From NCBI GenBank assembly GCA_016703105.1, contig JADJCS010000007.1, positions 143,810 through 207,809 of the forward strand: a DNA stretch of 64,000 nt. The letters run 5' to 3'. Each line of letters starts with the position of its first letter. Within the stretch, counting starts at the first letter, position 1. Below, one piece after another: positions 11,429-55,184 of the stretch. The notes below the pieces were generated by a model that did not search any database, was not told the DNA's origin, and saw nothing but the letters and a program-made list of their open reading frames with translations. Source of the DNA: Flavobacteriales bacterium. GTDB taxonomy: Bacteria > Bacteroidota > Bacteroidia > Flavobacteriales_F > PHOS-HE28. Made by a program: the position numbers and the translations under genes.

Positions 11429-11431
11429 CCG

Positions 11432-26070: not shown

Positions 26071-26354
26071 GCCGCAAACATCCGCTTCTTGGTTTCCTCG
26101 AACAATACGGCAGGTTCACCGGCTAATTGCAAGGCCTGCAAGCCACCGGCATTGCGCACGGCAGGCGTTTGAAAGATCTGCGGGTTCTCCAGGCCCTCGG
26201 TGCCTTCCACTTTGAATTGCCCGGCAATGGCCAGCAGTGCAGCGCGCGTCTTCTCCGGCAAGGTGTGCAACCAGTCCTCATGCTTGTAGCGGAAGGCCCC
26301 ACGCGGTCTTCCGCGTGCGCGGCAAGGCACCCCAGCCCAGTTGCGCCAGCACAT
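26067..26354 (-). other. hsdR: out-of-frame C-terminal fragment of hsdR (EcoEI_R_C-like tail)
   Basis: '...YKHEDWLHTLPEKTRAALLAIAGQF...ENPQIFQTPAVRNAGGLQAL' is the conserved HsdR C-terminal domain. The frame shift sits at the C/G run near 26295-26300. Confidence 0.6.
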
Positions 26355-28461
26355 CGTACAGGTCGTAGGCTTCCATGGCGTCCACCAGTTGCACCACAGC
26401 CGGGCTGCAACCGCTGCTCACGAGCAGGTGCATCAGTTCCTCGCGCGTGGGTGGGTCCACCCATTGCTGCCGGAACTCTTCCAAACTGTGCGCTTCCTGC
26501 AAGAGACGTGTGGCCAGGCGCTGGCGGTATTCCTCCACGGGTATCGGCTTGGCCTGCCCATCCACCTCCGCCACGATGAAGTGCCCGGCGGGCGATACAT
26601 GCACGTCGAAGCCATCCACGGTGATGATGCGCGGGGGCTCACCCTCGCCGCCTCCTTCACTTCCTTCACCTTCTTTCTTCGGCTTGGTAATGAACTCCTC
26701 ACCGAATAGCCGCGTGGCGTTGGTGTAATCGTAGAGCCGGAACATCAGCTTCTGGCTCTCGGGGTGCAGGCGTGTGCCGCGCCCCACCATCTGGTAGAAG
26801 CTGATGGGACTCTTGAGGTATTTGAAGAAGACGATGTTGCGGATGATGGGCACATCCACGCCGGTGGTGAGCAGGTCCACCGTGGTGGCGATGAAGTGGC
26901 TGCGGGTGCTGGCGCGCAGGTCCGGCAGTTGGTCGTTGCCACTGCTGGCCGCCGTGCATTTGAAGGCGTACATGTCCAGCCGTTCGGCACCGTTGGCGGT
27001 ACACCATGCGGCGTAGAGGTTGTTCAGCTTCACAGCAACGGCATCGGCATGTGCATCACGGGCGCAGAAGATGATGGTCTTCTGTTCCGGACCGCCGCTT
27101 TCCAACAGGTAGTTGAAGAGGTCCTGGCACATGGCCGCCACGCGGTCCGGCAGCATTAAGCTGTTCTCGTAGGCGGTGCTGGCATAGTGCTCCTGTACGT
27201 CGGCCGTGGTAAGCAGCTCCCCTGTGCGAGCATCGCGTGGTTCGCGCGCCATGATCTCCTCCACGGTAAGGCCGCGCTCATCGATGCTCACGCGACCCTT
27301 CTTTATCTCGCATGCGGCGAGGTAGCCATCCTCCACGGCCTGTGTATAGCTGTACTCATAAACCGGTTCGCCGAAGTATTTCAGGTTGTTGGCGGTGATG
27401 GCCTTGTCGGCCTCGGCTTCCTTGGTGTGTGCCTCAACGGTCAGTTCGCGCGGTGTGGCGGTGAGACCGATCTGCGCGGCCTTCGCGTTGCGCTCCAGCA
27501 CTTTGCTCCACTTGCCCCATGCGCTGCGGTGGCACTCATCGATGACGATGTGTGAAAAGTGGTTCTCGGGATAGAAGGTGGTAAGGAAGGACGCGTCGCC
27601 CTCATCCGTATCGACCCCGAGCGTTTGGTAGGTGGCGATGTGAATGCGTGCGTTCTTGGCGTTGTTGGTCTCGCCCTTCTTGTACACCTCGGCGGCATCG
27701 GCACCGAAGGCGTTGTTGAAGGCACCGAGCGCCTGCGTGCGCAGTTCGTCGCGGTCGCAGAGGAAGAGGGCGCGCGTCATCTGGCCGGAATCGCTCAGGC
27801 GCTTGAGCAGATTCACGGCAATGAAGGTCTTGCCCGCACCGGTGGCGAGCGAGAGCAAGGCGCGCTTAGGTTCACCTGTCTTCTCGCACCGCGCCATCTT
27901 CTCGAACACGGCACGGATGGCGGCATCCTGATAATAGCGGCGCGTGCCTTCGCCGGTGGCATAAGGCTGCAACAGTGGCTTGGCGGCCTCGTCGTTCAAG
28001 CTGAAGCCTTGGGCCGATTCGTAGCGTGTGCGCAATTCATCCGGCCCAGGAAAATCGGACATCGGCATTGCGACCGTGGTCATGCCCGTATGCCTATCGA
28101 ACAGCACGAACATGTGCCCGTTGCTGCTGATAACGAACTGCACGTTCAGCCGTTCGCACTTGGCGTAGCACTTGGCTTGTTCCAGACCATGTCCAGGCAT
28201 CAGGCTTTCCTTCTTCGCTTCCAGTACCGCGAGCGCAACGGGCTGTTTGCCGCCGGTAACGCTCACGCGCAGCACATAATCCACCTTGCCGCTGCGCTGC
28301 CTGCGGGCCTTGTTGTCACCAATAAGGTCGATGCCGCCCGCCGTTTCCTCCCGCCGGATGTGGTCCTCGTTCCACCCGCACCGATAAATGGCGGGGTCGA
28401 TGAGCTTGGCGCGGGTGTCGGCTTCGTTGAACAAGGCGGGTGAAAGTAGGGTGCGGAACAA
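26278..28461 (-). CDS. hsdR: Type I restriction enzyme R subunit (frame breaks near C-terminus)
   Basis: N-terminal nuclease/'DUF' region, SF2 helicase motifs ('LATGAGKT', DEAH-like 'VIDECHRS'). The 727-aa frame ends at 26278; the conserved C-terminal domain continues in another frame. Confidence 0.9.
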   Translation of the reverse strand: MFRTLLSPALFNEADTRAKLIDPAIYRCGWNEDHIRREETAGGIDLIGDNKARRQRSGKVDYVLRVSVTGGKQPVALAVLEAKKESLMPGHGLEQAKCYAKCERLNVQFVISSNGHMFVLFDRHTGMTTVAMPMSDFPGPDELRTRYESAQGFSLNDEAAKPLLQPYATGEGTRRYYQDAAIRAVFEKMARCEKTGEPKRALLSLATGAGKTFIAVNLLKRLSDSGQMTRALFLCDRDELRTQALGAFNNAFGADAAEVYKKGETNNAKNARIHIATYQTLGVDTDEGDASFLTTFYPENHFSHIVIDECHRSAWGKWSKVLERNAKAAQIGLTATPRELTVEAHTKEAEADKAITANNLKYFGEPVYEYSYTQAVEDGYLAACEIKKGRVSIDERGLTVEEIMAREPRDARTGELLTTADVQEHYASTAYENSLMLPDRVAAMCQDLFNYLLESGGPEQKTIIFCARDAHADAVAVKLNNLYAAWCTANGAERLDMYAFKCTAASSGNDQLPDLRASTRSHFIATTVDLLTTGVDVPIIRNIVFFKYLKSPISFYQMVGRGTRLHPESQKLMFRLYDYTNATRLFGEEFITKPKKEGEGSEGGGEGEPPRIITVDGFDVHVSPAGHFIVAEVDGQAKPIPVEEYRQRLATRLLQEAHSLEEFRQQWVDPPTREELMHLLVSSGCSPAVVQLVDAMEAYDLYDVLAQLGWGALPRTRKTAWGLPLQA

Positions 28462-28551
28462 CGCGAGGGTATGCCATTAGCCGTCCCGCGATGCCACGAC
28501 CCAACTGAAATGCCTGCGTTCTTCAGGCGTGGTGCTAACCTGCCTACCCGT

Positions 28552-29382
28552 TCACCCTGCCGTGAGCAGGTTCGCAAGCACATTCGCACCAACGTCCTTG
28601 GCGAATTTGGCGGTGTGCCTGGACACCTCCACCGCCGCCCGCATCAACTTCTCACGGTTGCGGTCTTCAATTGTCCCGATCAGTCGCTCCACCCAGGGTC
28701 GATCTTCCTTAACGATGGCTATCGAAGTACCCTCCATCGCATCGCTTAAAGCCCGTGCATCGCGCAGGAGCAATTGCCAACCTTCTTCGTCGATCACTTC
28801 AGCGTTCTCGATGAATGGAAGCTGCAGCTGCACGGACTTGCGGAAGTGCATGTCCATCTGGGTAGACACAGGGCCTTCGATCAAGTTCAAGTACGAAGCA
28901 CGGAAACTCTCGGTCGGGGTGGCGTTCGCGATGATCTTCACCTTCTGGAATTTTTCGCGGATCAGGTCTTTAGAGATGTAGGTGATAAGCCAAGTGCGGA
29001 ACGTTTCCTTTTTCGAGAGGTAAGCACTGTCGTAGAGCACATGCACGATGCGCTCAGTGCTATAGCTCCGCGCTCCGCTATCATCCCCGTTCAGCTCACG
29101 TGAGTTGTTGAAGAAGCGGATCTGTTGGTTGCGCACTTGCTTGGGGTTTACCCTGAACTCCACCTGCAACGCTTCGACCTTTTCATGGAGTGGAACCCTA
29201 CCCCGCACACCGGCAATAGAAGTGATGGAAAGATTGTGCACGTACACATAGAAATCATTCAGGTCGAAACCCTTCAGACAGCTGATCTCCTTCACTTCGC
29301 TCGCAACCACCTTCAATGTAAATGGGCTGAGGACTTGATCACAGTGGATGCGAAATCCGAAGTAGCGCTCAAGATTCGTCAT
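28552..29382 (-). CDS. hypothetical protein, compositionally atypical (lower GC than surroundings)
   Basis: 276-aa ORF immediately upstream of hsdR. GC by eye ~52-55% against ~65% background. No motif assigned. Confidence 0.5.
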   Translation of the reverse strand: MTNLERYFGFRIHCDQVLSPFTLKVVASEVKEISCLKGFDLNDFYVYVHNLSITSIAGVRGRVPLHEKVEALQVEFRVNPKQVRNQQIRFFNNSRELNGDDSGARSYSTERIVHVLYDSAYLSKKETFRTWLITYISKDLIREKFQKVKIIANATPTESFRASYLNLIEGPVSTQMDMHFRKSVQLQLPFIENAEVIDEEGWQLLLRDARALSDAMEGTSIAIVKEDRPWVERLIGTIEDRNREKLMRAAVEVSRHTAKFAKDVGANVLANLLTAG

Positions 29383-29738
29383 CGGATCGGTCTTGGAGTG
29401 ACGCCAAACTACGCGTTACCACTTGGCGATCCATCGCTCGAGGCCGGGATTCTTGGGATCCAAGGCTCTCGGAAGGGCTTCCGAGAGCTTTATGATCCTA
29501 CAAAGCCCAGCGGTGCATCAGGGAAAGTATAATCGACCCAGCTATAGGTGGCCTTCAGCGATCAGGCCCCTTGGCAGCGGGTGCATTCGCACCGCACAAC
29601 CATTTTACCAAGTAATCAATGAGCTCCGCTTACCTCTTCGTTCCGTTCAAGAAGGCATTCACGACAACCTGTCAACCACTAACCAACCAACCCATTGGCC
29701 CACCAACCCATGGGCTCCGCCCACCTTTTTGATCCGCG

Positions 29739-30116
29739 GACCATGGTCTTCACCGAAGACACCTTGGTCTCCCGGTCCGGGACCATAGTCTCCGAACAGT
29801 AGACGATGGACTCCGGACAACAGACCATGGTCCGCAAGCAGCAGCCAATGGTCTCCGACGCGCGGACGATGGTCTACACCGAAGAGACGATAGTCTCCCG
29901 GTGCGAGACCATGGTCTCCGAATAGCAGACCATGGTCTGCGAGCAGTAGACGATGGTCTCCGACGCGGGGACGATGGTCTACTCCGAAGAGACGATCGTC
30001 TCCCGGCGCGGGACCATGGTCTCCGAACAGCAGACGAGGGTCCGCAAACTCTAGACGATGGTCTGCCACGCGCGGACCATGGTCTACGACGAAGAGACGA
30101 TGGTCTTCCGGTCCGG
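29739..30116. repeat. tandem array of ~18 x 21-bp units (core GACCATGGTC palindrome) with 5-unit (105-bp) higher-order periodicity
   Basis: Read directly: units 'acSatggtctNNNNNNNNNNg' cycle through five tail types (..ccgaagag / ..cccggNNcgNg / ..ccgaacagcag / ..gcgagcagtag / ..ccgacgcgggg) about 3.5 times. Confidence 0.9.
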
Positions 30117-30315
30117 TAGCGCGGCCATGCGCCGGTGTGCCGATGCATTTCCTGGAAAGCGCATGGGGCGCGGCTTACAGGCGGTGATCACCCGGTGTAC
30201 CGGGTAAGGATCGAACCCCGGTACACCGGGGGAAAAAGAACGATCGCCGGGGGCTTTGCGATTCACCGGACATAACCAACGCTTTTGTGGGTACAGCAGG
30301 ACAGGCCCTCACCGC

Positions 30316-30948
30316 ATGAAGAAGATACTCTATACCGTAAAGCTTGGATTCACCAAGTTGACCGCCGCGGCCCTGGTCGGAAAGGGACGCACCAATGTGG
30401 AGATGTTGACGGGCAACGCGACCTACGCAACGCCGATCCCGCCACTCGCCACGATCACCGCCGCTTGCGACACGCTCGATGTGGCGAGCAATGCCTACGA
30501 TTTCTCCCGTAGCCGTTTGGACAAGGAGGACCGCGATGTAGCGTTCGCGGAATTGAAGGGGCTGTTGAAGGAATTGGGTGGCTACGTGCAAGCCATCAGC
30601 AAGGGGGACAAGGATCTGATCTTGAGCGCGGGCTTCGAAGTGGAGAAGGCCGCCAGCCCGATCGGGCAGCTCCCCGCCCCGCCCAATGTACGTGCCCTCG
30701 TAACGCCCTACCCCGAGCGCCTCGAGGTGAAGTGGGGGGGCGTAAAGGGCCGCACCACTTATGAACTGTGGATGACCGATGGTGATCCCAAAGTGGAGGC
30801 GAACTGGAAGCTCCACGCCATCACCAGCAAGAACCGCGCGATGGTGGAAGGCCTCACCAGCAACACCATCTACTTCTTCCGTGTAGTGGCGCAAGGCGCC
30901 GCCGGGGCCAGCCCGGTGAGCGATACCGCCAACGCGAAAGCCGCCTGA
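30316..30948 (+). CDS. hypothetical protein with fibronectin type III-like C-terminal domain
   Basis: Start trimmed to MKKILYTV. C-terminal '...YELWMTDGDP...WKLHAITSKNRAMVEGLTSNTIYFFRVVAQGAAG' resembles an FN3 beta-sandwich. Confidence 0.45.
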   Translation: MKKILYTVKLGFTKLTAAALVGKGRTNVEMLTGNATYATPIPPLATITAACDTLDVASNAYDFSRSRLDKEDRDVAFAELKGLLKELGGYVQAISKGDKDLILSAGFEVEKAASPIGQLPAPPNVRALVTPYPERLEVKWGGVKGRTTYELWMTDGDPKVEANWKLHAITSKNRAMVEGLTSNTIYFFRVVAQGAAGASPVSDTANAKAA

Positions 30949-31023
30949 TCCTTATCCTTCGACGCAGACCCCGGTATCCCTCGCACAAGGGATGCCGGGG
31001 TCGCCGGCGTAGAAAGCGATCCG

Positions 31024-31815: not shown

Positions 31816-31906
31816 GCACTACCGGGCATCCCACATTCCGCAGCACCGGTGCGCGAAGCAGCGAACCTTCCGCACCAACCGTCTGTTCGTTCACCAACTT
31901 CGCCGC

Positions 31907-33244: not shown

Positions 33245-33259
33245 CGCGTTCGCGACTCT

Positions 33260-34630
33260 ACACTTGCTGCGATAGATCCACTGAAGAGGACTGAGCAGGA
33301 AGGCAGGTGACCCATCGTTCGCGATAGGAGCGAGTCCTATGAATCCTTATTGGTACCTGTCTTCCACTCGGGTCGGAGGCTCAGATAGAATTTCAGGCAG
33401 TCAGGCCTAATAGAGTCATCAAGCATACGGCCCTTCGCTCAGTCCCTCCAGGGATCATTGGTGTAACTCAAAACTACGAGGACATGGACCTATGTATCGG
33501 GATCGATGTGAGTAAAGCCCACCTGGACCTAGCCTTGATGAACGCATCCGGAGCCGTTTTGGGGACCGAGCGGATCACCAATGAAAGCAAGGCGATCAGA
33601 GCATTGCTGAAGCGATGGCACAAGCAGTTCGGAGTGACCAAGGCCAATGCGCTGTTCTGCCTGGAACCTACGGGGCACTATGGGTACCTGCTGGTGGAAG
33701 AACTCATGCGGGCCGGTCTGCCGACCTGGCTGGCACATCCGCTGGACATCAAGCACAGCATCGGAAGCACACGGGGTAAGAACGATCGGATCGATGCCCA
33801 GCGCATTGCCGATTATGCCCGTAGGCACCACGACAAAGCCCGATTGCTGGGGCCTGGTTCTTTGCGCATGAACAAGCTCAAGCAGCTGCTTACGTGCCGA
33901 CGTCAACTGGTGACGGACAAACGCCGCCATCAGGTGAGGATCAAAGACCTGAACCGCCATGTGGACAGATCGCTCCGAGCTTTGTTCGATCGTCTGAGCC
34001 AAGAGCGGATCGAACAGATCGACACGCAACTGGAGAAGATCGAAGCCGCAATTGTGGACCACATCCATGCCGATCCACGGCTACGCGAGCAGTATGTGCT
34101 GCTCCTTAGCGTGGATGGCGTGGGACCCGTATTGGCAGCGCACCTCCTGGCATGCACCGAAGGCTTTACACGCTTTGCTACCGCCCGCCGCTTAGCCTGT
34201 CAGGCTGGTGTGGCTCCCTACGAGCACTCTTCGGGCTCCAGCATCCATGGTCGCACACGCGTATCTCCACAAGCCGACCGCGTGCTGAAAACGCTGCTGC
34301 ATATGGCAGCACTCGGTGTGATAGCTCGTGCTGGTGAGCTCCAGGACTATTACAAACGAAAGCGTGCTGAAGGCAAGGCCCTATGCTGGTGATCAACGCT
34401 GTGCGCTGCAAGATCCTACATCGCCTGTTCGCAGTGGTCCAACGAGGTACCCCCATTTGTCCGGACCCCACTTGCACAGGTCATAGAATAAGGATCAGCA
34501 CCGAGGGCAACGCCCAAGGTGATGGCCGAAGCGATCTTTAATTCGCGCGTGGGTTGTGCGTGGCAATAAATGATCACGTACGGATCCAACAAGATCGCTT
34601 CGCGCCGACGACGGACGCTCGCGAACGCGG
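33260..34630 (+). mobile_element. IS110-family insertion sequence (boundaries approximate)
   Basis: IS110-type transposase ORF flanked by lower-GC non-coding DNA, sitting between convergent genes. IS110 elements lack clear TIRs, so the ends are estimated. Confidence 0.5.
33484..34392 (+). CDS. IS110-family transposase (C-terminal tail frameshifted; tail continues 34389..~34490 in another frame)
   Basis: N-terminal DEDD-type domain 'IGIDVSK', central 'RGKNDRIDA' motif. The conserved C-terminal 'MLVINAVRCKILHRLFAVVQRG' is encoded out of frame just after the stop. Confidence 0.8.
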   Translation: MDLCIGIDVSKAHLDLALMNASGAVLGTERITNESKAIRALLKRWHKQFGVTKANALFCLEPTGHYGYLLVEELMRAGLPTWLAHPLDIKHSIGSTRGKNDRIDAQRIADYARRHHDKARLLGPGSLRMNKLKQLLTCRRQLVTDKRRHQVRIKDLNRHVDRSLRALFDRLSQERIEQIDTQLEKIEAAIVDHIHADPRLREQYVLLLSVDGVGPVLAAHLLACTEGFTRFATARRLACQAGVAPYEHSSGSSIHGRTRVSPQADRVLKTLLHMAALGVIARAGELQDYYKRKRAEGKALCW

Positions 34631-34646
34631 GTAGGAAAAGAGTTGA

Positions 34647-36388: not shown

Positions 36389-36904
36389 TTACCGCAGGGC
36401 ATGTTCCTGTTCTTCTAGTTTATTTCTCAATCCTTCGAGCGCCCGATCGGTGGCCTGGAGGGCCTCCGCATCGGTCGTTCGTGTACGATACGTTTCAAAG
36501 GCGGTGATGGCGGCAGTGGTGCTGTCCATCATCGCGTAACTCTGCCCCAATAGCGACCAGGCCTCCGGGAACTTCCCTTCCTGGTCCAGTTCCACCACCT
36601 GGCGGAACCGGCCAACGGCCTTGTCCACTTGCCCGCTTTGAAGACTGAAGAGGCCCAGGTGCCAGTGTACTTCGGCTTCCTCCGGATGTTCCTCGGCCAA
36701 TTGCCGCAGGATCATGATCCCCTGCATGGGCTGGGTGCCGTTCACCAGGGCGATCGCTTCGTCCAGCTTCACCCGCAAGGGCGAAACCTCAGCGGCTTTC
36801 GCGTTCTCGCCGGTCTTCGGCGTACGGGGCAGCAACATCAAAAGAACGACCACCACCACAGCACCGGCGATAGCCAGCCACTGGGGTTTCCCCAAATTCC
36901 TCAT
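36389..36904 (-). CDS. tetratricopeptide-repeat protein with N-terminal TM anchor
   Basis: TM helix 'WLAIAGAVVVVVLLMLL', then TPR-like helical repeats. Confidence 0.5.
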   Translation of the reverse strand: MRNLGKPQWLAIAGAVVVVVLLMLLPRTPKTGENAKAAEVSPLRVKLDEAIALVNGTQPMQGIMILRQLAEEHPEEAEVHWHLGLFSLQSGQVDKAVGRFRQVVELDQEGKFPEAWSLLGQSYAMMDSTTAAITAFETYRTRTTDAEALQATDRALEGLRNKLEEQEHALR

Positions 36905-37191
36905 CCCTGCTTCACGCGGTTCTTCACCTTGTCGATGAAGACGTCCGCGGGCTTGAAGGAAGGCACGTCATGGGCGGGGATCACGATGGTGGTGTTCTGG
37001 GAGAGGATACGGCCGGTCTTCTGGGCGCGGTGTTTCACCACGAAGCTGCCGAAGCCGCGCAGATGGACATCCTCGCCCTTCTCCAGGCTGTTCTTCACCT
37101 CTTCCATGAAAGCCTCGATGGTCACCAAAACGGCGTTCCGCTCTACGCCCGTCCTCTTTGCCAAAATGCTGACCAGTTCTGCCTTCGTCAT
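36901..37191 (-). CDS. hup: DNA-binding protein HU
   Basis: 'MTKAELVSILA...GFGSFVVKHRAQKTGR' HU/IHF signature. Start trimmed to MTKAEL. Confidence 0.85.
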   Translation of the reverse strand: MTKAELVSILAKRTGVERNAVLVTIEAFMEEVKNSLEKGEDVHLRGFGSFVVKHRAQKTGRILSQNTTIVIPAHDVPSFKPADVFIDKVKNRVKQG

Positions 37192-37259
37192 CCCGTACCT
37201 TGTTTGGGGCCGCGAAGATAGCGTTCCAAATGGAACCCGCAATGCATCTTTGTGCCTGT

Positions 37260-38309
37260 ATGTCAAGCCTTTCATGGTTCAGCGCGGCCCTGGCCCCGTG
37301 GTACGCGACCCACAAGCGCGATCTACCCTGGCGACGCACCAAGGACCCCTACCGGATCTGGTTGAGCGAAGTGATCTTGCAACAGACGCGGGTGGACCAG
37401 GGGCTTCCCTACTACCTGCGGTTCGTAGAGCGCTTCCCGGATGTCCGCTCGCTGGCCGGAGCGGAAGAGGACCAGGTGCTTCGGCTATGGCAGGGGCTCG
37501 GCTACTACAGCCGGGCGCGTAACCTCTTGTTCGCGGCCCGGCAGGTGCAGGAACAGCACGGGGGAAAGTTCCCTACGGGCTTCGATGGTTTGCGCGGGCT
37601 TCGCGGCATCGGTGACTACACGGCTGCGGCCATTGCCAGCATCGCTTTCGGGGAACAACAGGCGGTGGTGGACGGGAACGTGTACCGCGTGCTGGCGCGC
37701 GTGTTCGGCATCCGCACGCCCGTGGACAGCAGCGCGGGCGCGAAAGAGTTCCGGGCCCTGGCGAACGCCCTGATCCCGGCTATAAAACCCGGGGACCACA
37801 ACCAGGCTGTGATGGAATTGGGGGCGACGGTCTGCCTCCCCCGGGAGCCCCGCTGCCCGGATTGTCCGCTGGCCGCGAAGTGCCTCGCCCGGCGGGAGGA
37901 CCGCATCACGGAACTGCCGGTGAAGCAGGGGCGCACCAAGATCCGCCGTCGGCATTTCAACTACCTGCTGCTGGATCGGAAAGGCGGTGCCATGCTCCGC
38001 AAGCGCGCCGGCAAGGATATCTGGCAGGGATTGTACGAGCCCCCGCTCCATGAAAGCGACCGCACACTTACGCGCACGGCCTTGCTGAAGCACCTGAACA
38101 CGGAATATGGCGGCACATGGAAAGTGGTGCGCACGGAAAACGCGGTCACGCACCTTCTCTCCCACCAGCGCCTGCACATCACCTTCTGGCACGTGGCGGC
38201 CCCGGCCGGTTACCGCAAGCCGGCGGATTGGAAATGGGTGCCTTTGGCCAAGCTTGACGCGCACCCCCTGCCCCGGCCGGTGGAGCGCTACTTCGAGCAG
38301 ACCCTGTGA
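37260..38309 (+). CDS. mutY: A/G-specific adenine DNA glycosylase
   Basis: HhH-GPD motif, [4Fe-4S] Cys ligands 'CLPREPRCPDCPLAAKC', C-terminal NUDIX-like domain. Start approximate. Confidence 0.85.
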   Translation: MSSLSWFSAALAPWYATHKRDLPWRRTKDPYRIWLSEVILQQTRVDQGLPYYLRFVERFPDVRSLAGAEEDQVLRLWQGLGYYSRARNLLFAARQVQEQHGGKFPTGFDGLRGLRGIGDYTAAAIASIAFGEQQAVVDGNVYRVLARVFGIRTPVDSSAGAKEFRALANALIPAIKPGDHNQAVMELGATVCLPREPRCPDCPLAAKCLARREDRITELPVKQGRTKIRRRHFNYLLLDRKGGAMLRKRAGKDIWQGLYEPPLHESDRTLTRTALLKHLNTEYGGTWKVVRTENAVTHLLSHQRLHITFWHVAAPAGYRKPADWKWVPLAKLDAHPLPRPVERYFEQTL

Positions 38310-45007: not shown

Positions 45008-45149
45008 GAGCCACATGCTAAGCTCGCATGAAGAGAGCTTCGACAGGCTTTCCATTCGAGGATCAAGGCCGATAGACTCTAGCCACCTCAGTTGGGAGAG
45101 ATCCCTTTCGAGTACGACGAAGCTCGGTGACCATTGCCATCTTTGCCAC

Positions 45150-45896
45150 ATGTACGAAGGCAAGAAGGTGATCGTGGTGCTGCCCGCCTATCGCGCGGCC
45201 CTGACCCTGCAGCAGACCTATGCCGAGATCCCCTTCCCCTTGGTGGATGAGGTGGTGCTGGTGGACGACAAGAGCCCGGACAACACCGTGGACGTCGCAC
45301 ACACGCTGGGGATCAAGCACATTGTGGTACACCAGGTGAACCGCGGTTATGGTGGCAACCAGAAGAGCTGCTACGACAAGGCGCTGGAACTCGGCGGCGA
45401 CATCATTGTGATGCTCCACCCGGACTACCAGTACACGCCCTAGCTGCTGGTGAGCATGATCGCCTTGATCGGCAACGAGGTCTACCCGGTCGTCTTCGGC
45501 TCGCGGATCCTCGGGAAAGGTGCGCTCCGTGGTGGCATGCCACTCTACAAGTACATCTTCAATCGCATGCTCACCCTCACGCAGAATGTGCTGATGGGCC
45601 AGAAGCTGAGCGAGTACCACACCGGCTATCGCGCCTACGCGGGCCATGTGCTGCGCAGCATCGATTACAACCGGCTCTCGGACGATTTCGTGTTCGACAA
45701 CCAGATCGTCGGGCAGATCTTCTGGAAGGGGTATGAGGTGGCGGAGATCACGTGCCCCACGAAGTACTTCGACGAGGCCAGTAGCATCAACTTCAGCCGG
45801 AGCATGACCTATGGCTTCGGGGTGCTGAACGTGAGCTTCCGCTACTTCCTCGCGCGTACCGGCATCCTCGGCTGGCCACTGCTGGGTAAACGATAA
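45150..45896 (+). CDS. family-2 glycosyltransferase (DPM1/GtrB-like) interrupted by in-frame TAG at 45441-45443
   Basis: 'VLVDDKSPDNT' DxD-region and 'HPDYQYTP*LLVSMIALIGNEVYPVVFGSRIL' are continuous across the amber codon. Confidence 0.75.
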
Positions 45897-45899
45897 GCC

Positions 45900-47512
45900 A
45901 TGCTTTCGCTGGGCAAAGCGCGGATCCAACTGCTCATCGCGCTGGGCGCCTTGCTCCTTTTCGTGCCCGGCCTCGGAGCCGTCCATCTCTTCGATTGGGA
46001 CGAGATCAACTTCGCCGAGATCGCGCGCGAGATGGTGGTGAGCGGGGACTGGTCGCGCCCCACCATGGGTTTCGAGCCCTTCCATGAGAAGCCACCGCTT
46101 TTCATGTGGATGCAGGCGGCGTGCATGAACGCTTTCGGCATCGGCGAGTTCGCCGCCCGGCTGCCCAACGCCTTGTGTGGTGCGCTGACGTTGGTGGTGC
46201 TGTTCCGCATCGGGTCCCAGGAGCGTGATCCGATCTTCGGATGGCTGTGGGTCATAGCGTACGTAGGTTCCATTCTCCCCACCTCTACTTCCACAGTGGT
46301 ATCATCGATCCGTGGTTCAACCTCTTCATCTTCCTCGGGCTCTACACCTTCATCCGCTCGGTGCGGGAGCGATCATTGCGACAGTCGATCCTCAGCGGCG
46401 CTCTGGTCGGGCTGGCGGTGATGACGAAAGGCCCTGCGGCCATCATCATCGTCGGGCTTGCGGTATTCACCTACTGGGCGCTGCAACGCTTCAAGGTGTT
46501 CTTCTCCTGGGCCCATATCGGTGCCATGCTGCTCTCGATGGTGTTCATCATCGCGCTCTGGTTCGGTATTGATCTCCTGCGACACGGCCCGGACTTCACC
46601 GTGGCGTTCTTCGAACGTCAGGTCGCCTTGTTCACCGAGGAGGATGCCGGACACGGAGGCTTCTTTGGATATCACTTCGTGGTTCTATTGATCGGTTGTT
46701 TCCCTGCTTCGCTGTTCGCGTTGCAGGAGTTGTTGAAGCCGACGAAGGAAGGGGACGAGCGCCGTGCTTTCCGCACCTGGATGATGATCCTCTTCTGGGT
46801 GGTGCTGATCCTGTTCAGCGTGGTAAGCACCAAGATCGTCCACTACAGCAGCCTGTGTTATTTTCCGCTCACCTATCTGGCCGCCCTTCAAGTGGAGCGG
46901 ATCTGGAAGAAGCAGGAGGGCTTCGGTTGGTCGCGCTTCGCCATGGGCGTGATCGGCAACATCATCGCGCTCGCGGTGGTCGTCCTCCCCTTCGCGGCGA
47001 TGCGTATCGAACGGCTCAAGCCGCTCTTCTCCGCCGATCGGTTCGCGCAAGGGAACCTCGCGGCGAATGTGCGTTGGACCGGTCTGGAGGCCGTCGCCGG
47101 CGCGGTGCTGTTCGCAGCGCTGCTCGCGGCGCATGTGTTGCACAGCAAGGGCAGGTTCCGCCAGAGTTTGTTAGTGAGCTTCGGCGGTGTGGTCCTCTTC
47201 ATCTGGTGTGCGCTGTACTTCTTCGTGAACAACATCGAAGGCTACTCACAACGGGCGGCCGTCGAGTTCTTCGAAGCGCGGCAGGACGAACCGTGCTACC
47301 TCCTTACCAAGAACTACAAAAGCTACGTGCCGGAGTTCTATGGGCGGATGCGTGAACCACAACCCAACGAGGAGGTCCTGCTGGGCGGGCCGATCGATAG
47401 ACCGGTCTACCTCTCCTGCAAGATCACCTCTATGGCGGAAGTGGAAGCGTTGGGAACGTTCCACGAACTCTACCGCAAGAACGGCTTCGTCTTTTTCAAG
47501 CGGGAACCTTGA
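45900..47512 (+). CDS. GT39/ArnT-like (PMT_2) membrane glycosyltransferase, one frameshift near 46277-46286
   Basis: N-terminal frame 45900..~46285 and frame 46241..47512 together give a ~530-aa 12-TM ArnT-like protein. The break is at a CCCC run. Confidence 0.7.
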
Positions 47513-47532
47513 CCGGGAGCCCAACATCGCAC

Positions 47533-48213: not shown

Positions 48214-48216
48214 CCT

Positions 48217-49382
48217 ATGGAACCTGACCTGTCCCACATTCTTACCCATCTCGGCGAGGACCGCGAGCGCGGCTACGACGCGGTGGTGCCACCCATCGTG
48301 CAGAGCGGGAACTTCACGTATCCCACCGTGGCGGCGATGCGGGCCACGGTGCAGCAGGAGTTCGACAAGCCCCTTTTACACACGCGGCTTCAATCCGACC
48401 GTGGCGGTGCTGCGGAAGAAGATCGCCGCGCTGGAACGCGCCGAAGATGCGATGGTGTTCAGTAGCGGGAGCGCGGCCATAGCGGCGGCGGTGATCAGCT
48501 TCGTGAAGGCGGGCGATCACATCGTCTGTGTGCGCAAGCCCTACAGTTGGACGAAGAAGCTCCTGGCGGAACTCCTCTCCCGTTTCGGTGTGGATCACAC
48601 CTTCGTAGATGGCACCGATCCGGAGAACTACCGGCGCGCGATCCAGCCGAACACCAAGTTCTTCATCCTCGAAAGCCCGAACTCGCTCACCTTCGAACTA
48701 CAGGACCTGGCAGCGGTGAGCGCGATCGCGAAAGAGCACCGGATCGTTACACTTTGCGACAACAGCTTCAACAGCCCGCTGTTCCAGCGACCCATCGCGC
48801 ACGGCATCGACATGGTGGCGCACAGCGCGACCAAGTACTTGAACGGCCACAGCGACGTGGTGGCCGGCGTGCTCGCCGGAAGCCATGAACACATGCGCCA
48901 AGTCATGGCGAAGGAATTCATGACGCTGGGCGCGGCACCCTCGCCGCACGACGCCTGGTTGCTGATCCGTGGCCTGCGCACGCTGGAGCTACGCATGCAC
49001 CGCAGCGCCGATTCCGCGGAGAAGGTGGCGCGCTTTCTGGAAGGCCATCCGAAGGTGGCCCGGCGTGCACTGGCCGGGGCTGGAGAGCCATCCGCAACAT
49101 GTGCTCGCAAAGCGACAAATGGATCGCGTGGCCGGACTGATGAGCATTGAACTCGACGCACCCGATGAAGCCGCTGTGGAACGCTTCTGCGATGCGCTCA
49201 AGACCTTCCTGATCGCGGTAAGCTGGGGCGGGTACGAAAGCTTGCAGTGGCCCGTGTGCGCACTGAAGGGACCCAGCGGTTACTATACTGACCTACCCTT
49301 CACCATGGTGCGGCTCTACATCGGCTTGGAGGATCCCGATCTTCTCATCCGGGACCTGGAGCAGGCCTTGGCGCGGATCTAA
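48217..49382 (+). pseudogene. PLP-dependent Cys/Met-metabolism enzyme (cystathionine gamma-synthase/beta-lyase family) split over three frames
   Basis: Conserved blocks 'FNPTVAVLRKKIAALE', 'SATKYLNGHSDVVAG' (PLP-Lys), 'YPGLESHPQHVLAKRQM' lie in successive frames. Breaks at C-runs ~48370-48373 and ~49040-49042. Confidence 0.75.
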
Positions 49383-49580
49383 AGGCGCACTCGCGCAGAA
49401 GTCGCCGCACAGATCGAGAACCGACGCGATGTGGAGATGGCTATTGTGATCGAGAGGAACGATGCTGTGTAAGCCAACAGGGCACTTGTCATGGACACTT
49501 CAAGGTAACTGGACCGTTCGGTCGGGTAGCTGAACTCCATGGGAGAAATACCGGCAACGTTCAGATTCCTGCCTCCAAGG

Positions 49581-52019
49581 TCAGAACGTCGCTCGCAAGG
49601 CGACTATGAAGTTCCTACCCGGCGAAGTCATGCCGGACGAGTAGGTTCGATAGCGCGCATCGAGCACATTCTCTACGCCCACCGAAAGCAACACCGCGGG
49701 TGTCACACGGATGCTCCCTTTCACATCCAGCACTTGCCAAGGCGGGCAGAACGGGTCACCCGCAGCATCCAGTGCGTAAATGGGTTTGTCCTTCTCGGTG
49801 GGAGCCAGTTCCTCAGTAGTGAAGCCATCACTGAAAGAGAAGAGCGCCCGCAGATCAACGCGCCCATGTGCCCAGCGTAAGCCGATCCGCCCGAAGGATG
49901 GGGGTGAATGACGCAGCGGTACTACGCTCACTCCATCCTCCGCATCCTCCGAACCTGACTGGCCCGTGTACCGGACCTCTGCGGAGAAACCCGCGAACAA
50001 TATCGCTTCCATGGAAAAGGTCCCGCCCCATACGCGGGCTTGCGCGACGTTCTGGATCGCATCCACGCGGCTCAGGGAGCCTTCATAGAAAATGCTGTCC
50101 GCACCGTTCAGATCATAAGGCCTGCGCACCATGACATCGTCCACGAGGATGTAGAAAAGTGAACCGCTCAGCTTGACACGGTCCAGGATCGTCTTCTCCA
50201 CGCTCAACTCCGCACTATAGGCATACTCCGGTCCGAGATCCGGGTTGGGCACGATCACTGTGCCGGGCTCATTGGAGAACACCTTACCCACGTCATCTAT
50301 GTTCGGGGAACGGAAGCCCGTGCTCAGGTCGATCGCGAGTTTCCATGCGGTCCCCGGTCGCCACGCAGCGCCCATGTTGCCGGTGAGCGCGCCATTGTTC
50401 AGCGAAGTATGCGTGGTCGGATAAGGGAACAGCGTCGTATCGAAAGTCGCCTCAAGACCCGAGCGGCTGTAACGCGCTCCTGCGGAAAGCGTGAGGCGTT
50501 GCGTCAAGTCAGCCATCGCGCCGACATACACCGAACCGGTCCACCACGTCGATCCATCGGGATAACGCGCATTGATGTTCTGATAGGCATCGTCCACCGT
50601 CTCATGCTGTGCCGCGTGGGAACCGACCAGGTTGTGGATGGCCTCCGCGCCGTAGAGCAGTTGAACACGCTTGCCGAGGAACTTCTGCAGATCGAGGTTC
50701 AGCCAAAGACCATCGACTTGTTCCTTCTGAAGAGTGATCTCTGTTTGTCTGAACCCGCGTTGTGTCCGGCTTTCGTCATACCGCTGGGAAGCGATCACGA
50801 GATGCGCCTTTGTCCATGGGCCACGTTTCGCGATGTGGCTTACCTCACCGCTGATCATCCGCCAGGCCTGTGGCCCGTAGTTCCACACCGCCCACCGCGC
50901 TGATCCATCGCCCCGTGCTGTGATCATCGCGTCATAGCGCGGATGATCGCTGGTTGTGGTGTAATAGCCGTTGAGCCCGACCTCCAGCCCGTGGATCGGA
51001 CGGTAGGCGAGCTTCGCCATGTAGGCGTAGTTCTCGAAGGCCGTTCCCATTTGGAGCTTGGGATCCACGTTCACCACCTGGCTATCCACCCCGTTGAACG
51101 TTCTGACGTACCACGGGCGCAAGTAGTCATCCAAGCCATCGGAGCCCATGCGCAGATCGCCGTACCCGGTAAGCGAAGCACTACCGACGAAGGCGAACTT
51201 GCGCGAACCGATGCCGAGGTCCACATGCCCCGCTAGCTCGTTCGCTGCGCTTGCCGATCGCAGATAGCTCGTACCGCGCACCAGCAAGCCACTGTCCGCA
51301 CTGAAACCTGGCCGCAGCAGCCGGAAGTCCATAACCCCACCGATGGCGTCACTACCATAGGTCATGGCCCCTGGCCCGTATACCACTTCGGCATGCTCCA
51401 CCGCGTGTACGTCCACGTTGATCACGTTCTGCAAATTGCCAGCGCGGTAGATGGCGTTGTTCATCCGCACGCCGTCCACGACGATGAGCACGCGGTTGGC
51501 CGCGAAGCCGCGCAGCATGGGACTCCCCCCGGCCTGCTGTGTCTTTTGCACGAACACCTCCCCGCTTTGCTGCAGCAGGTCCGCGCTAGTACCCGGGTTG
51601 TGGAACGCAACATCCGCCGCGCGCATCACGGTGATCCGATCCGGTACCCGTGTACCATCCTGCTCCCAGCGATTGGCGCTCACCACCATTTCGGGCATCT
51701 GGAAAGGAACGACCACCAGGGCCACCCGATAGCCACGACGGACCACGTCGTCCCAAGCGATCCGCACTACAGGATGGCCTGGAACGATGAACGACAAAGT
51801 GTCCGATCCCAGGTCCGCGACGACCCTCACTTGCCCGTTCACGTTGGTCGTACCGAGAGGCCGGCTGAACTTGGCGAGGACCTGAACGCCCTCCAATGGG
51901 CGGTCCGCACCCTCCTCCACCACGGTGATGGTCTGCGCCTGTAGCAGGAGCGTCCCCGCCAGGGTGCAAAGGGAACATATGACGCTGCGAAGCACCACGG
52001 CCCAACAAATGAAACGCAC
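49581..52019 (-). CDS. TonB-dependent receptor (intact)
   Basis: Signal peptide, plug domain, 22-strand barrel pattern, C-terminal '...ALRATF'. 812 aa; GTG start. Confidence 0.9.
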   Translation of the reverse strand: MRFICWAVVLRSVICSLCTLAGTLLLQAQTITVVEEGADRPLEGVQVLAKFSRPLGTTNVNGQVRVVADLGSDTLSFIVPGHPVVRIAWDDVVRRGYRVALVVVPFQMPEMVVSANRWEQDGTRVPDRITVMRAADVAFHNPGTSADLLQQSGEVFVQKTQQAGGSPMLRGFAANRVLIVVDGVRMNNAIYRAGNLQNVINVDVHAVEHAEVVYGPGAMTYGSDAIGGVMDFRLLRPGFSADSGLLVRGTSYLRSASAANELAGHVDLGIGSRKFAFVGSASLTGYGDLRMGSDGLDDYLRPWYVRTFNGVDSQVVNVDPKLQMGTAFENYAYMAKLAYRPIHGLEVGLNGYYTTTSDHPRYDAMITARGDGSARWAVWNYGPQAWRMISGEVSHIAKRGPWTKAHLVIASQRYDESRTQRGFRQTEITLQKEQVDGLWLNLDLQKFLGKRVQLLYGAEAIHNLVGSHAAQHETVDDAYQNINARYPDGSTWWTGSVYVGAMADLTQRLTLSAGARYSRSGLEATFDTTLFPYPTTHTSLNNGALTGNMGAAWRPGTAWKLAIDLSTGFRSPNIDDVGKVFSNEPGTVIVPNPDLGPEYAYSAELSVEKTILDRVKLSGSLFYILVDDVMVRRPYDLNGADSIFYEGSLSRVDAIQNVAQARVWGGTFSMEAILFAGFSAEVRYTGQSGSEDAEDGVSVVPLRHSPPSFGRIGLRWAHGRVDLRALFSFSDGFTTEELAPTEKDKPIYALDAAGDPFCPPWQVLDVKGSIRVTPAVLLSVGVENVLDARYRTYSSGMTSPGRNFIVALRATF

Positions 52020-52105
52020 TGGCCCGGATGTAACGAGTACACCCGGGCCAGCTTGTTGCGCGCCGCGAGAACGTCAGAACGAAGCGCGCAATATGTGTGC
52101 GGTGA

Positions 52106-52639
52106 TCACATGGTCTTCCGCATTCGCTTCGGCCCGTACCAGAGCCAGAAGCCAGTGATCGTGAAGGTCACCAATGCCGTACCCATGACGCTCGTGTAGA
52201 CGAGTTTGAACCATTCGCCTTTGATGCCGAAGAGATGGTCCACGATGGAACCGTCATGCACATTCTCGATGAAGTCCGATCGGCGCCGTTCAATATGCAA
52301 AAGCTCTCCGGTTGTGGCATCCAACTGGATCCCCCAGAAGTGATCGAGGAAGACGAACTTGACCATTCCCTTCTCTGGCCGCACATCGATGCGCTCAAGA
52401 TCGAGGGCGAGCGTGGAAGAGATCGAATCATGCAATATGCGGCAAGCGTTCCGGTGCAGGCTGGTGATCGGCAACCAGTTGGCCATATCTGTGGAGGCGC
52501 CTGTGTAGGACTTCGGTAGGATAATGCCGTTGCTATGTTTCTTCCAACCCAACAGAAGACCGGTGCCAGCGACCACGAAAAAGAAAGCGAAGAGGCACGC
52601 GCCGGTGATGCGGTGGACCTTGCGAAAGGTCCGCAACAC
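52106..52639 (-). CDS. PepSY-associated TM helix protein
   Basis: 'RKVHRITGACLFAFFFVVAGTGLLLGW' PepSY_TM N-terminal motif. Start approximate (non-ATG). Confidence 0.5.
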   Translation of the reverse strand: MLRTFRKVHRITGACLFAFFFVVAGTGLLLGWKKHSNGIILPKSYTGASTDMANWLPITSLHRNACRILHDSISSTLALDLERIDVRPEKGMVKFVFLDHFWGIQLDATTGELLHIERRRSDFIENVHDGSIVDHLFGIKGEWFKLVYTSVMGTALVTFTITGFWLWYGPKRMRKTM

Positions 52640-52731
52640 ACGCGCCTGGCGCCTCCTGGGGGTCTGAACATCAGGGTGAGAGGGTCGGTGGGGGCCGCAG
52701 AGCCCCACCTCGATCCGCCTGGGTCTCGTGA

Positions 52732-55184
52732 TCAGAACGAAGCGCGCAATGCCAGTAGGAAGTTGCGTCCCGGCGCCGTGATACCGGATGAGTATGGCCG
52801 GTAGCGCTGGTCGGTGATGTTTTCCACGCCGGCCGTCACTTGCAAGGCCTTCACGATCTGATAGCTCCCCTTGAAGTTGAGGGTGTACCAACTAGGCGCA
52901 TAGGGATCACCGTTGTCATCCAAGGCATAGATCGGCGTCTTGGCCTGCTCGCTGGGTGCCAGGTCATCAAAGGTGAATCCCGCGCTGAAGTCCGCGTACA
53001 GCCTGAGCCGGATCTTCTTGCGTTCCCAACTAAGCCCTGCGCTGCCGAACGCGGGCGGGCAGTGCCGGAGGGGAACGTCGATGATGTTATCGTCATCCTG
53101 CTCCACGCCATCCTGCCAGTTGTAACGTGCATCGAGCCCGATACCAAGCCCAAGTTTCGCGTCCACGGCGATCAAGAAACCCAGCACGGTAGCCTGCGCG
53201 GCGTTCTGGATCGCATCCACTCGGCTCAACTCACCATCGTACATGATGCTGTCCTGCCCATTGAGTTCGTAGGGACGCCGGACCATTGCGTTGTCCAGCA
53301 GGATGTAGTACCCGTTCGCACGCAACCGCACGCGATCCCAAGCACCTTCTCGATGCCGATCTCGGCGGTATAGGCATACTCCGGTCCGAGTTCCGGGTTC
53401 GGTACGATCACCGCGCCCGGTTCACTGTCGAACACCTTGCCGATGTCATCGATGTTGGGCGAACGGAAACCCGTGCTCAGATCCAGCGAGAATTTCCAAG
53501 CCGTTCCAGGGCGATAGGCCAGGCCAAGGTTCCCGGTGAGCGCATTGTTGTTCAAGCTCGTCGCGGTAACGGGATAGGGGAACAACGAGGTGTCGAACGC
53601 GCACTTCAGCGCCGACCAATTGAAACGCGCACCGCCGGATAGGGTGAACCGCTCACTGGGATCGCGCATGGCGCCGACGTAGACCGAGCCCGTATTCCAA
53701 GAGGAACCATCGGGATAGCGGGAATTGATGACCTCGAACTCGCCGTTCTCCTGATCCACGCGTTGCCGGGTGGACCCTACGTCGTTGGTGACGAACTCGG
53801 CTCCATAGAGCAATTGCGTGCGAGCCCCAGGTCCTTCTGCAGGTCGAGATTGCCCCAGATGCCGGATACCTGTTCCGCCTGCGTGCGGAGCCGTGAGTTC
53901 CCGAAATTCCGATCGTTCCGGCTCTCCTCATAGTCCTGGTAAGCGACGGTGAGGCGTGCCGTGCTCCATGGACCACGCTTGGCCTGATGCTGAATACGCA
54001 AGCTGCCCATCAGCCAGTCCTGCGGTCCATAATACCACTCAGCGGAGCGCGGAGCGTCGTTGCGCAGTTCGATGAGCCTGTCGTAGCGCGGCACATCACT
54101 GGTCGTGCTGTAGTAGAAGTTCGCCCCGATCTCCAGCGATGCGACTGGGCGATAGGCGAGCTTGCCCATGAAGTTCATGTTGTCATAGGCGCTTCCCACT
54201 TGGAGTTCGGGATCGCTATTGATCACCATGCTATCCGCACCATTGATCACCTCGGAATACCAGGGGCGCAGATAATCGTCGGGGCCTTGTGTGCCCATGC
54301 GTAGATCCCCGAACCGAGTGAAGGAGGCGCTACCCACGAAGGCGAGTTTGCGTCCACCAAGGCCGAGGTCGAGATGCCCTCCGTACTCGCTCGCAGCGGA
54401 ACCATATCGTGCTGCGGCTCCTCCTCGGAACAACAGCGTGCTGTCCGCACTGAACTTGGGGCTCAAAAGGTGAAAGTCCATGACTCCACCGATGGCATCG
54501 CTTCCGTAGGTCATGGCCCCCGGGCCATGGATCACTTCGGCCCGTTCCAGTGCGTACGGATCGGCGCTGATCACGTTCTGCAGGTTCCCTGCCCGGTAGA
54601 TGGCGTTGTTCATACGCACCCCGTCGACCACGATCAGCACACGGTTGGCCGCGAAGCCTCGAAGCATAGGACTGCCTCCACCCAATTGGCTTTTCTGCAT
54701 GAAAACCTCTCCGGTCTGTTGGAGCATATCGGCCGCGGTGCCGGGGTTGTTGAACACGATATCGCGCGGCTTGATCACAGTGATCTGATCGGGCACACGG
54801 TCCGCTTCTTGTTCCCAACGGTTGGCGCTGATGACCACTTCGTTCAATGGGAACGCCGCAGCGGTAAGCACGATGCGGTTCTCGCTCTTGGCCAAGTCGC
54901 CAAAGGCCACGGTGTTGGGCCCATAACCGAGCAGGTGGAGATGCAGACTATCCGAGCCCGCGAGGGATGCGATGGAGGCGCGACCGCGTACATCCGTCAG
55001 CACAGGGGCATTCGCATCGGCTCCTGTAATGGAGACCCCTCCAGGGGTCGGTCCGTATCCTGATCGACCACGGTTATGGTCTTGCGCATTGAGACGCCAC
55101 CGCAGCGAACGTCAATAGGACGATGATGGTCCTTGATGTGATCATGTGAAAGGTGAAAGAATGGACCAAGGAAACCCACATCAT
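52732..55184 (-). pseudogene. TonB-dependent receptor paralogue with >=4 frameshifts
   Basis: The signal-peptide frame, the 82-aa fragment, and the 408-aa, 195-aa and 199-aa ORFs are collinear with the intact receptor at 49581..52019 but lie in different frames. Confidence 0.8.

Follow-up and report, generated by a model that had tools for sequence, protein, structure and literature searches.

In the window (the whole 64-kb stretch of contig JADJCS010000007.1 analysed here), we located by six-frame translation and by alignment to related assemblies 11 frameshifting indel sites and one in-frame TAG across six genes: hsdR, an IS110-family transposase, the glycosyltransferases GT2 and GT39, a PLP enzyme and TonB-dependent receptor 2 (TBDR-2). 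A preliminary description of this DNA had named the same six genes, and all are confirmed as disrupted; its list lacked the second lesions in hsdR and in the transposase, and a 323/324-nt deletion near TBDR-2.

The hsdR gene (26067..28461, minus strand), which encodes a type I restriction subunit of 798 aa when intact, carries two 1-nt C deletions (plus-strand sequence) 10 nt apart, at 26296-26300 (C5 to C4) and at 26310-26311 (C3 to C2). The extra C is present at both sites in four out of four relatives (L005-L008, two of them short-read contigs), and ResIII and EcoEI_R_C domains are found in the intact hsdR relatives. The IS110-family transposase (33484..34491, plus strand) has lost a C at 34379-34381 (C4 to C3), by which it is truncated at 34392, and has gained a C at 34450-34454 (C4 to C5), 73 nt further downstream. 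Its counterpart in L005 has C4 at both sites, reading ...QRGTPFVRTPLAQVIE*, and a frameshift of its own at 33974, while L006 (JADJUU) shows 55 private indel events within the element.

The GT2 gene (45150..45896, plus strand; 248 aa) is interrupted by the TAG at 45441-45443, an A to T substitution in an AAG (Lys) codon; all four relatives (L001, L002, L003 and L021) have A at 45441, and the Pfam domain Glycos_transf_2 was found in the GT2 relatives. The GT39/PMT_2 gene (45900..47512, plus strand; 537 aa) has lost one nt from the C run at 46277-46280 (C5 to C4), which is C5 in L001-L003 and in the JGI contig L021. In the gene for the Cys/Met-metabolism PLP enzyme (48217..49382, plus strand; 387 aa), an extra T (T3 to T4, 48374-48377) adjoins a CCCC run, and a net +1 change occurs amid a patch of five substitutions at 49063-49067, the actual position of the second site, which had been put at 49040-42.

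TBDR-2 (52732..55145, minus strand; 805 aa) was said to be hit at four or more sites: alignment to relatives located four, each with a net loss of one nt, at 53338, 53821-53825, 55035 (C5 to C4) and 55083-55093, and four out of four relatives are intact there. Upstream of TBDR-2 lies the remnant of a 179-aa gene (55258..55471, minus strand), its frame broken by two deletions, the one of 323/324 nt at 55452/55453 and another of 3 nt at 55466; it is full length in L001, L002, L009 and L010.

Seven of the 11 coding indels are simple run-length changes, six in C runs (26300, 26310, 34381, 34454, 46276 and 55035) and one in a T run; the other four, at 49063-49067, 53338, 53821-53825 and 55083-55093, are complex, that is, net changes of +1 or -1 amid clustered substitutions. 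No coding indel falls in a G run (0 of 11). The claim that everything except the TAG is a +/-1 indel in a C or G run thus holds for the six C-run events, and does not hold for G runs, for the T run or for the four complex sites. The affected runs measure just 3-5 nt and occur at scattered positions in the genes, and the events show a strong bias for plus-strand pyrimidines (11 of 12).

In addition, five window-specific 1-nt indels, overlooked in the earlier inventory, are intergenic: an extra C (plus strand) at 3026, absent from nine out of nine relatives; a missing T at 5017 (10 of 10 relatives differ); an extra T at 30953 and an extra G at 33453 (two of two relatives differ in each case); and a missing C (C5 to C4) at 52702, in a terminator-like stem (three of three differ). 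The intergenic share of events is 5/16, against about 11.5% expected (P = 0.03, with the intergenic fraction being our own estimate). Such an excess is expected of real, selection-filtered variants and counts against an artefact.

The coding events are unevenly distributed. Alignment of relatives over 1-21 kb, 34.6-45 kb and 55.5-64 kb (excluding 36667-37534, where there is no relative) uncovered no window-specific coding indel, so these housekeeping blocks are as clean as previously described. The remaining ~44 kb of coding sequence contains none of the 11 indels, nor the TAG (P about 4e-4 to 4e-3). Three of the gaps among the 11 events are 100 nt or less (10, 50 and 73 nt; P = 3.5e-4), and the events occupy five of 27 bins of 2.4 kb (P = 4e-4 for uniform placement and P = 5e-4 for placement restricted to C/G runs of at least 3 nt), by which the suspected clustering proves to exceed chance. 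Composition, which had been offered as a possible cause, does not account for it: C/G runs of at least 4 nt are rarer in disrupted than in intact regions (4.9 vs 6.0 per kb). A local factor must therefore underlie the unevenness, with read coverage and strain mixing as candidates. The association of indel sites with local substitution density was not significant (P = 0.12), and the strain-mixing part of the mechanism is accordingly weakly supported.

The lesions occur in the window alone: at each site, the related assemblies that cover it (2-10 overall, 2-4 at coding sites) are intact. Among these assemblies are the short-read contigs L007, L008, L010 and L021, the last of which shows C5 at 46276 and AAG at 45441. 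The hit genes had been regarded as accessory DNA, but they are not strain-specific: each related assembly with coverage of hsdRSM, GT2, GT39, the PLP enzyme and TBDR-2 has them in intact form, with the sole exception of TBDR-2 in JADJJC. The sister Nanopore MAGs have private 1-nt indels as well: eight in JADJJC, four of them within TBDR-2, and 56 in JADJUU, with the IS110 region accounting for 55. In the short-read contigs, the only private 1-nt indels seen were paired ones in a single divergent allele (L018). The density of events in the window (17 in 64 kb, or 2.7 per 10 kb) is comparable to that in JADJJC (2.3 per 10 kb). Run length is constant across all relatives for 11 of 11 C/G runs of at least 6 nt and for 66 of 67 of at least 5 nt; the longest, five runs of 7 nt, lie outside the disrupted genes and are likewise invariant.

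The window ORF at 53777-55003 (minus strand), a TBDR-2 fragment, matches GenBank MBK6754010.1 without a difference, even in its out-of-frame tail ARNCSMEPSSSPTT; that entry is annotated as a MAG protein of a Flavobacteriales bacterium and clusters with proteins on contigs of the PromethION R9 MAGs of Singleton 2021. The match directly shows membership of the MBK-accession batch of MAGs, within which interpolation of accessions points to JADJCS as the most likely bin. According to that source (PMC8012365), JADJCS is bin Aved_18-Q3-R54-62_BATAC.626, the species representative of an uncultured Flavobacteriales PHOS-HE28 species from Danish activated sludge, with bin-wide mean depths of 7.3x (Illumina) and 16.5x (Nanopore), a polymorphic rate of 3.1% and a strain heterogeneity of 100, and Supplementary Data 3 lists JADJUU, JADJJC, JADJAP and JADJFW. 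It also describes a CANU assembly of PromethION R9 reads (Guppy 2.2.3 flip-flop), polished with Racon, with medaka twice and then in one Illumina Racon round, and gives caveats on residual homopolymer indels in Nanopore MAGs. With coverage modelled as Poisson around a mean of 7.3x, ~1.5 kb of the 64 kb is predicted to lie at 2x or less.

The broken genes retain the substitution pattern of purifying selection. Compared to L005, hsdR differs by 39 SNPs (35 synonymous, four non-synonymous), while the PLP enzyme gene has 14 SNPs (12 and two) and TBDR-2 has 92 (68 and 24), so that 74-90% of substitutions are synonymous in these three broken genes, versus 60% in an intact neighbour gene. Editing nine bases is enough to regain ORFs of full length, free of stops, in four genes: +2 nt for hsdR (796/799 aa identical), +1 nt for GT39 (536/538), -2 nt for the PLP enzyme (384/388, the repaired patch reading KVARVHWPGL) and +4 nt for TBDR-2 (779/806). 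Relaxed selection was sought in TBDR-2, hsdR and the PLP enzyme and was not seen.

The finding is thus an ordinary one: the broken genes almost certainly reflect single-base errors left in the consensus rather than real gene loss. Of the two explanations put forward in the preliminary description, sequencing or assembly error is favoured by the Nanopore R9 origin with ~7x Illumina polishing, the private lesions, the indels in sister MAGs and the mostly synonymous substitutions, and we consider it highly probable that the frame disruptions as a whole are residual errors of a Nanopore R9.4.1 MAG and not lost genes. R9.4.1 assemblies are known to keep homopolymer indels that fragment gene calls unless they are polished with short reads (PMC9262707). 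The window resembles such assemblies in the seven of its 11 coding indels that are +/-1 changes in short homopolymers, mainly deletions, in that the split ORFs are full length in short-read assemblies of the same species, and in having a lesion set private to the assembly, as do its sister MAGs, from a lightly Illumina-polished R9 source. It differs in that the surviving indels are in 3-5-nt runs of a few patches instead of in the longest runs, that four out of 11 are complex changes at haplotype-variable spots, and that the pyrimidine bias is marked and on one strand. A strand-symmetric error model does not predict that bias, which counts against an artefact.

Such errors could persist if, at ~7x Illumina depth in a strain-mixed population, short patches were matched by too few short reads for correction. 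These patches would keep the Nanopore consensus, in which short C and T runs may be under- or over-called, and where haplotypes differ by several bases, chimeric joins of +1 or -1 might survive. Patchiness of this kind would account for pairs of events 10-75 nt apart, the pile-up in few genes and the 44 kb of clean neighbours. The six or seven "pseudogenes" of the window should not be taken as biology, and the same caution is due for other split ORFs in the JADJCS genome and in its sister MAGs. In lightly polished Nanopore MAGs, surviving errors may be patchy, independent of homopolymer length or density, and may strike one gene repeatedly in imitation of gene decay. Three questions discriminate between the two without reads: are the lesions private, are the substitutions mostly synonymous, and does a minimal repair give a full ORF?

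Two lesions, the GT2 nonsense substitution (A to T) and the 323/324-nt deletion, are atypical of Nanopore errors and may be true minority or strain variants. They lie in hit loci, one beside GT39 and the other beside TBDR-2, which counts against the artefact. There is an even chance that the truth is mixed, with most 1-nt indels being artefacts while the TAG at 45441 and the 55452 deletion, together with some of the intergenic indels, none of these being of the homopolymer type, are real in the assembled strain or in a minority haplotype. The polymorphism and strain heterogeneity of the MAG population speak for this, as do 441 window substitutions seen in no relative, by which the window represents a distinct haplotype; against it, a lone A to T change could itself be an erroneous consensus call in a patch that polishing missed.

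Genuine recent pseudogenisation would mean that one strain has lost hsdR, the GT2-GT39 pair, the PLP enzyme and the TBDR-2 uptake operon by slipped-strand indels, with lesions in essential genes being purged; if so, the strain-level loss would extend to a restriction enzyme, a glycosylation pair and one receptor out of two paralogues, and would be of modest interest. Disruptions restricted to plausibly dispensable genes, the nonsense codon adjoining a frameshifted GT39, the deletion upstream of TBDR-2, the intergenic over-representation and the break of TBDR-2 at other positions in JADJJC all fit this account, and several disabling lesions per gene are indeed seen in true pseudogenes of host-restricted or recently bottlenecked bacteria. 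At usual indel-to-substitution ratios, five indels would be accompanied by tens of random, mostly non-synonymous changes, some of them stops. The repaired ORFs, contrary to this, show no stops, and TBDR-2 (four hits), hsdR and the PLP enzyme (two each) nevertheless keep their synonymous bias. Unlike in true pseudogenes, no lesion is shared with any relative and events cluster within 10-100 nt, which independent mutations would not lead one to expect, in an error-prone, low-coverage Nanopore MAG whose sister assemblies have similar private indels. The runs themselves also speak against slippage, the second explanation of the preliminary description: those of 3-5 nt are poor substrates, whereas the 6-7-nt runs never vary. 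We therefore regard such gene loss as unlikely. Distinctly unlikely, too, is the narrower proposal that the GT2 nonsense, the 323/324-nt deletion and the TBDR-2 frameshifts are real, that PHOS-HE28 populations of two separate treatment plants (those of the window and of JADJJC) are independently losing the TBDR-2 operon, and that the pyrimidine indels reflect a replication-strand-specific slippage bias instead of a polishing artefact.

Phase variation, in which the C runs would serve as contingency tracts and turn genes for restriction, glycosylation and receptors on or off, recalls the classical loci of Neisseria, Haemophilus and Campylobacter in gene class (R-M, LOS glycosyltransferases, TonB-dependent receptors) and in frame loss by +/-1 changes in C runs, which most simple events are, but it is made very improbable by tracts of 3-5 nt (those of known contingency loci usually reach at least 7-8 nt, and would be expected in the 5' coding region or the promoter), by a single tract length per site across all relatives, by five invariant 7-nt C/G runs, and by two to four lesions in several genes, some complex and non-repeat, from which one switch could not restore the frame. 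The classes of element that are hit, namely a restriction enzyme, glycosyltransferases, an outer-membrane receptor and an IS, do decay or phase-vary in other bacteria, and this choice of targets counts against the artefact.

All disruptions listed in the preliminary description were recovered on six-frame translation of the window. In hsdR, the EcoEI_R_C-like C-terminal tail shifts to another frame past ~26300; the IS110 transposase runs into a stop at 34392, with its conserved tail (PMLVINAVRCKILHRLFAVVQRGTP) in a different frame. GT2 carries an in-frame TAG (45441-45443), GT39/PMT_2 changes frame near 46277, the Cys/Met PLP enzyme does so twice, and TBDR-2, a TonB-dependent receptor, at least four times. 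These lesions were compared with syntenic contigs of 96-99.9% nucleotide identity, which were retrieved by exact match to intact window proteins (plus one JGI contig found by pattern scan) and jointly span the whole window except 36667-37534. The relatives include four Singleton 2021 Nanopore MAGs (JADJUU, JADJJC, JADJAP and JADKDC), a later MAG (CAWKVM) and several short-read contigs (megahit/Logan). In them, hsdR (789-798 aa), GT2 (248 aa), PMT_2 (537 aa), the PLP enzyme (387 aa) and TBDR-2 (805-818 aa) are full length, the sole exception being TBDR-2 of JADJJC.

Against these relatives, C runs changed length in hsdR (26300, C5 to C4; 26310, C3 to C2), IS110 (34381, C4 to C3; 34454, C4 to C5), GT39 (46276, C5 to C4) and TBDR-2 (55035, C5 to C4), and a T run in the PLP enzyme gene (48374, T3 to T4). 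The latter gene also has a net +1 within five substitutions at 49063-49067, and TBDR-2 a net -1 in each of three substitution clusters (53338, 53821-53825 and 55083-55093). The disruptions are present in the sequence but had been partly misdescribed: C or G runs had been given as the site of every indel, yet of the 11 coding frameshifts six fall in C runs and one in a T run, four are complex, and G runs are not hit at all. The related assemblies bear out that the housekeeping blocks are devoid of coding disruptions. Five further events are intergenic: +C at 3026, -T at 5017, +T at 30953 (4 nt past a stop codon), +G at 33453, and 16 nt absent relative to all relatives at 52670-52702, between TBDR-2 and a PepSY_TM gene. 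The last loss takes in one C (C5 to C4) of the right arm of a terminator-like hairpin, GGTGGGGGC...GCCCCCACC.

Two lesions are of another kind. The TAG in GT2 arises from an A to T change at 45441 (AAG to TAG). Immediately upstream of TBDR-2, a gene for a conserved predicted membrane protein of 179 aa, full length in four relatives (L001, L002 (JADJJC), L009 and L010), has lost most of its sequence and its frame to a 323/324-nt deletion and a 3-nt deletion at 55452-55466, leaving a remnant at 55258-55471 on the minus strand. No obvious microhomology was seen at the junction of the 323/324-nt deletion, which may be a true structural variant. That the TAG, the large deletion or both belong to the assembled haplotype is about an evenly balanced proposition.

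The frame disruptions as a whole are very probably a known type of assembly artefact, i.e., residual consensus errors. Supplementary Data 3 of PMC8012365 lists JADJCS as the species-representative MAG of PHOS-HE28 cluster 277, with Illumina and Nanopore coverage of 7.3x and 16.5x, respectively, a polymorphic-site rate of 3.1% and a strain heterogeneity of 100. For this dataset, the sequencing details in the same paper specify PromethION R9 flow cells, Guppy 2.2.3 flip-flop basecalling, assembly with CANU, and polishing with Racon, twice with medaka and in one Illumina Racon round with --include-unpolished (PMC8012365). In R9.4.1 consensus sequences, indels in homopolymers persist and break up gene calls where no short-read polishing is applied, a step that low-coverage bins require (PMC9262707). 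Under a Poisson model with a mean of 7.3x, ~1.5 kb of the 64 kb would be covered at 2x or less. A search with the repaired TBDR-2 led to a 90%-identity protein cluster that includes a MAG-derived "TonB-dependent receptor plug domain-containing protein" of 408 aa (MBK6754010.1), which matches window ORF 53777-55003 at every residue, even in the out-of-frame tail.

The lesions are private to the window, none being common to any relative. Short-read contigs are intact in hsdR (L007, L008), GT2/GT39 (L021) and TBDR-2 (L010). A pattern with flexible run lengths for the hsdR frameshift allele had no match in JGI metagenomes; the one contig there that matched the GT39 pattern, L021, is intact, with C5 and with AAG at 45441. 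Sister assemblies carry errors of their own: of the eight private 1-nt indels in JADJJC, four lie in TBDR-2 at positions other than those of the window, and the IS110 region of JADJUU shows 55 private indel events. The density of private indels is about the same in the window (2.7 per 10 kb) and in JADJJC (2.3 per 10 kb). Short-read contigs have no private 1-nt indels except paired ones in a divergent allele of L018.

In JADJJC, opposite 1-nt indels in TBDR-2 pair up at window-equivalent 53535/53613 (78 nt apart) and 54780/54809 (29 nt apart), so that this receptor is split too (426 + 371 aa), at sites different from those in the window. The window and CAWKVM both contain the IS110 element (33260-34500), with a frameshift of its own at 33974 in the CAWKVM copy, and the JADJUU copy is garbled; this looks like either an insertion polymorphism or a repeat badly handled by long-read consensus.

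The events are biased by strand. Among the 12 simple events of the window (1-nt indels), 11 change a C or T on the plus strand (P = 0.006). C and G runs occur with equal frequency. In the sister Nanopore MAGs, private 1-nt events show the same pyrimidine bias in nine of 10 cases (pooled 20/22, P = 1.2e-4). Polisher asymmetry and a replication-strand effect are inseparable here, since every Nanopore contig, as it happens, is oriented like the window. Three of the six C deletions lie within CCCCCAC.

The clustering of the 11 coding events exceeds expectation: three gaps measure 100 nt or less (P = 3.5e-4), the median distance to the nearest neighbour is 73 nt, and the events occupy only five of 27 bins of 2.4 kb (P = 4e-4 for uniform placement; P = 5e-4 if placed only on C/G runs of at least 3). 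Local strain divergence is only weakly supported as the cause: window-unique SNPs within 150 nt of events average 3.7, compared with 2.1 in the background (P = 0.12), and the fit is confined to TBDR-2 and the second site in the PLP enzyme gene, without extending to hsdR, IS110 or GT39. Mispolishing of TBDR-2 caused by repeats is unlikely, as a second receptor, presumably the TBDR-1 paralogue, encoded on the contig of a close TBDR-2 homologue, shares only ~57% protein identity with that homologue. Composition was ruled out, because the hit genes contain slightly fewer C/G runs of at least 4 per kb (4.9) than the remainder (6.0); as long runs also hardly vary, with the same length in every relative for 11 of 11 runs of at least 6 and 66 of 67 runs of at least 5, the clustering is not accounted for by homopolymer content or by run length. 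Spacings within the close pairs are 10, 50 and 73 nt, which does not fit an origin by independent mutations; the pairs would instead fit patches left uncorrected by the short reads.

The broken genes otherwise bear the marks of selection. Synonymous and non-synonymous substitutions number 68 and 24 in TBDR-2, 35 and 4 in hsdR, and 12 and 2 in the PLP enzyme gene, a synonymous share no lower than in the intact 717/731-aa neighbour (53 and 36). Minimal repair (+2, +1, -2 and +4 nt) yields full-length ORFs without stops, 96.7-99.7% identical in amino acids to relatives. If four independent frameshifts in one gene were real, usual indel-to-substitution ratios would normally lead one to expect many random substitutions alongside them.

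Of the two explanations put forward in the preliminary description, sequencing or assembly error is therefore favoured by the origin of the data, the privacy of the lesions, the sister assemblies, the selection signature and the fine-scale pairing. Genuine slipped-strand pseudogenisation of the broken genes is unsupported, the lesions being private and closely paired, the substitutions mostly synonymous and the repaired ORFs free of stops. We still grant it a slim chance because genes of the classes hit undergo decay or phase variation elsewhere, Nanopore errors do not typically resemble the TAG or the 323/324-nt deletion, each of which adjoins frameshifted genes, intergenic events are over-represented (5/16 against an assumed intergenic fraction of 11.5%, P = 0.03), and the link with local strain divergence is weak overall. 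Phase variation is rejected, since the tracts are only 3-5 nt long and identical in length in all relatives, and several of the genes have more than one lesion, some of them outside repeats.

The window has a G+C content of ~60% and, from Pfam labels on syntenic relatives, harbours gliding/T9SS genes (GldL/M/N, PorP/SprF), a sulfur-oxidation cluster and a type I restriction-modification system. The dense sulfur-oxidation neighbourhood (1-14900), kept in all relatives, includes several rhodanese genes, a Lactamase_B+rhodanese (persulfide dioxygenase-like) gene, Pyr_redox_2 (SQR-like), an MFS-rhodanese fusion and thioredoxin; in relatives, genes for a SoxA/TsdA-like cytochrome and sulfur transport lie directly upstream. 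The gene for an OprD-like porin of 475 aa (1159-2586) is highly polymorphic over 1500-2100 (210 polymorphic sites in one kb). The divergent L018 allele at this segment, with paired, compensating indels, fits a genuine allelic variant of a surface protein. Another 475-aa gene (window ORF 19230-20657) is full length, and an apparent stop-creating SNP relative to CAWKVM (L005) was therefore put down to the SNPs having been scored individually. Inside the restriction-modification operon, between hsdS and hsdM (23130-24820), lie two to three small ORFs without a Pfam match (248, 161 and 161/147 aa in relatives), invariant in sequence across strains.
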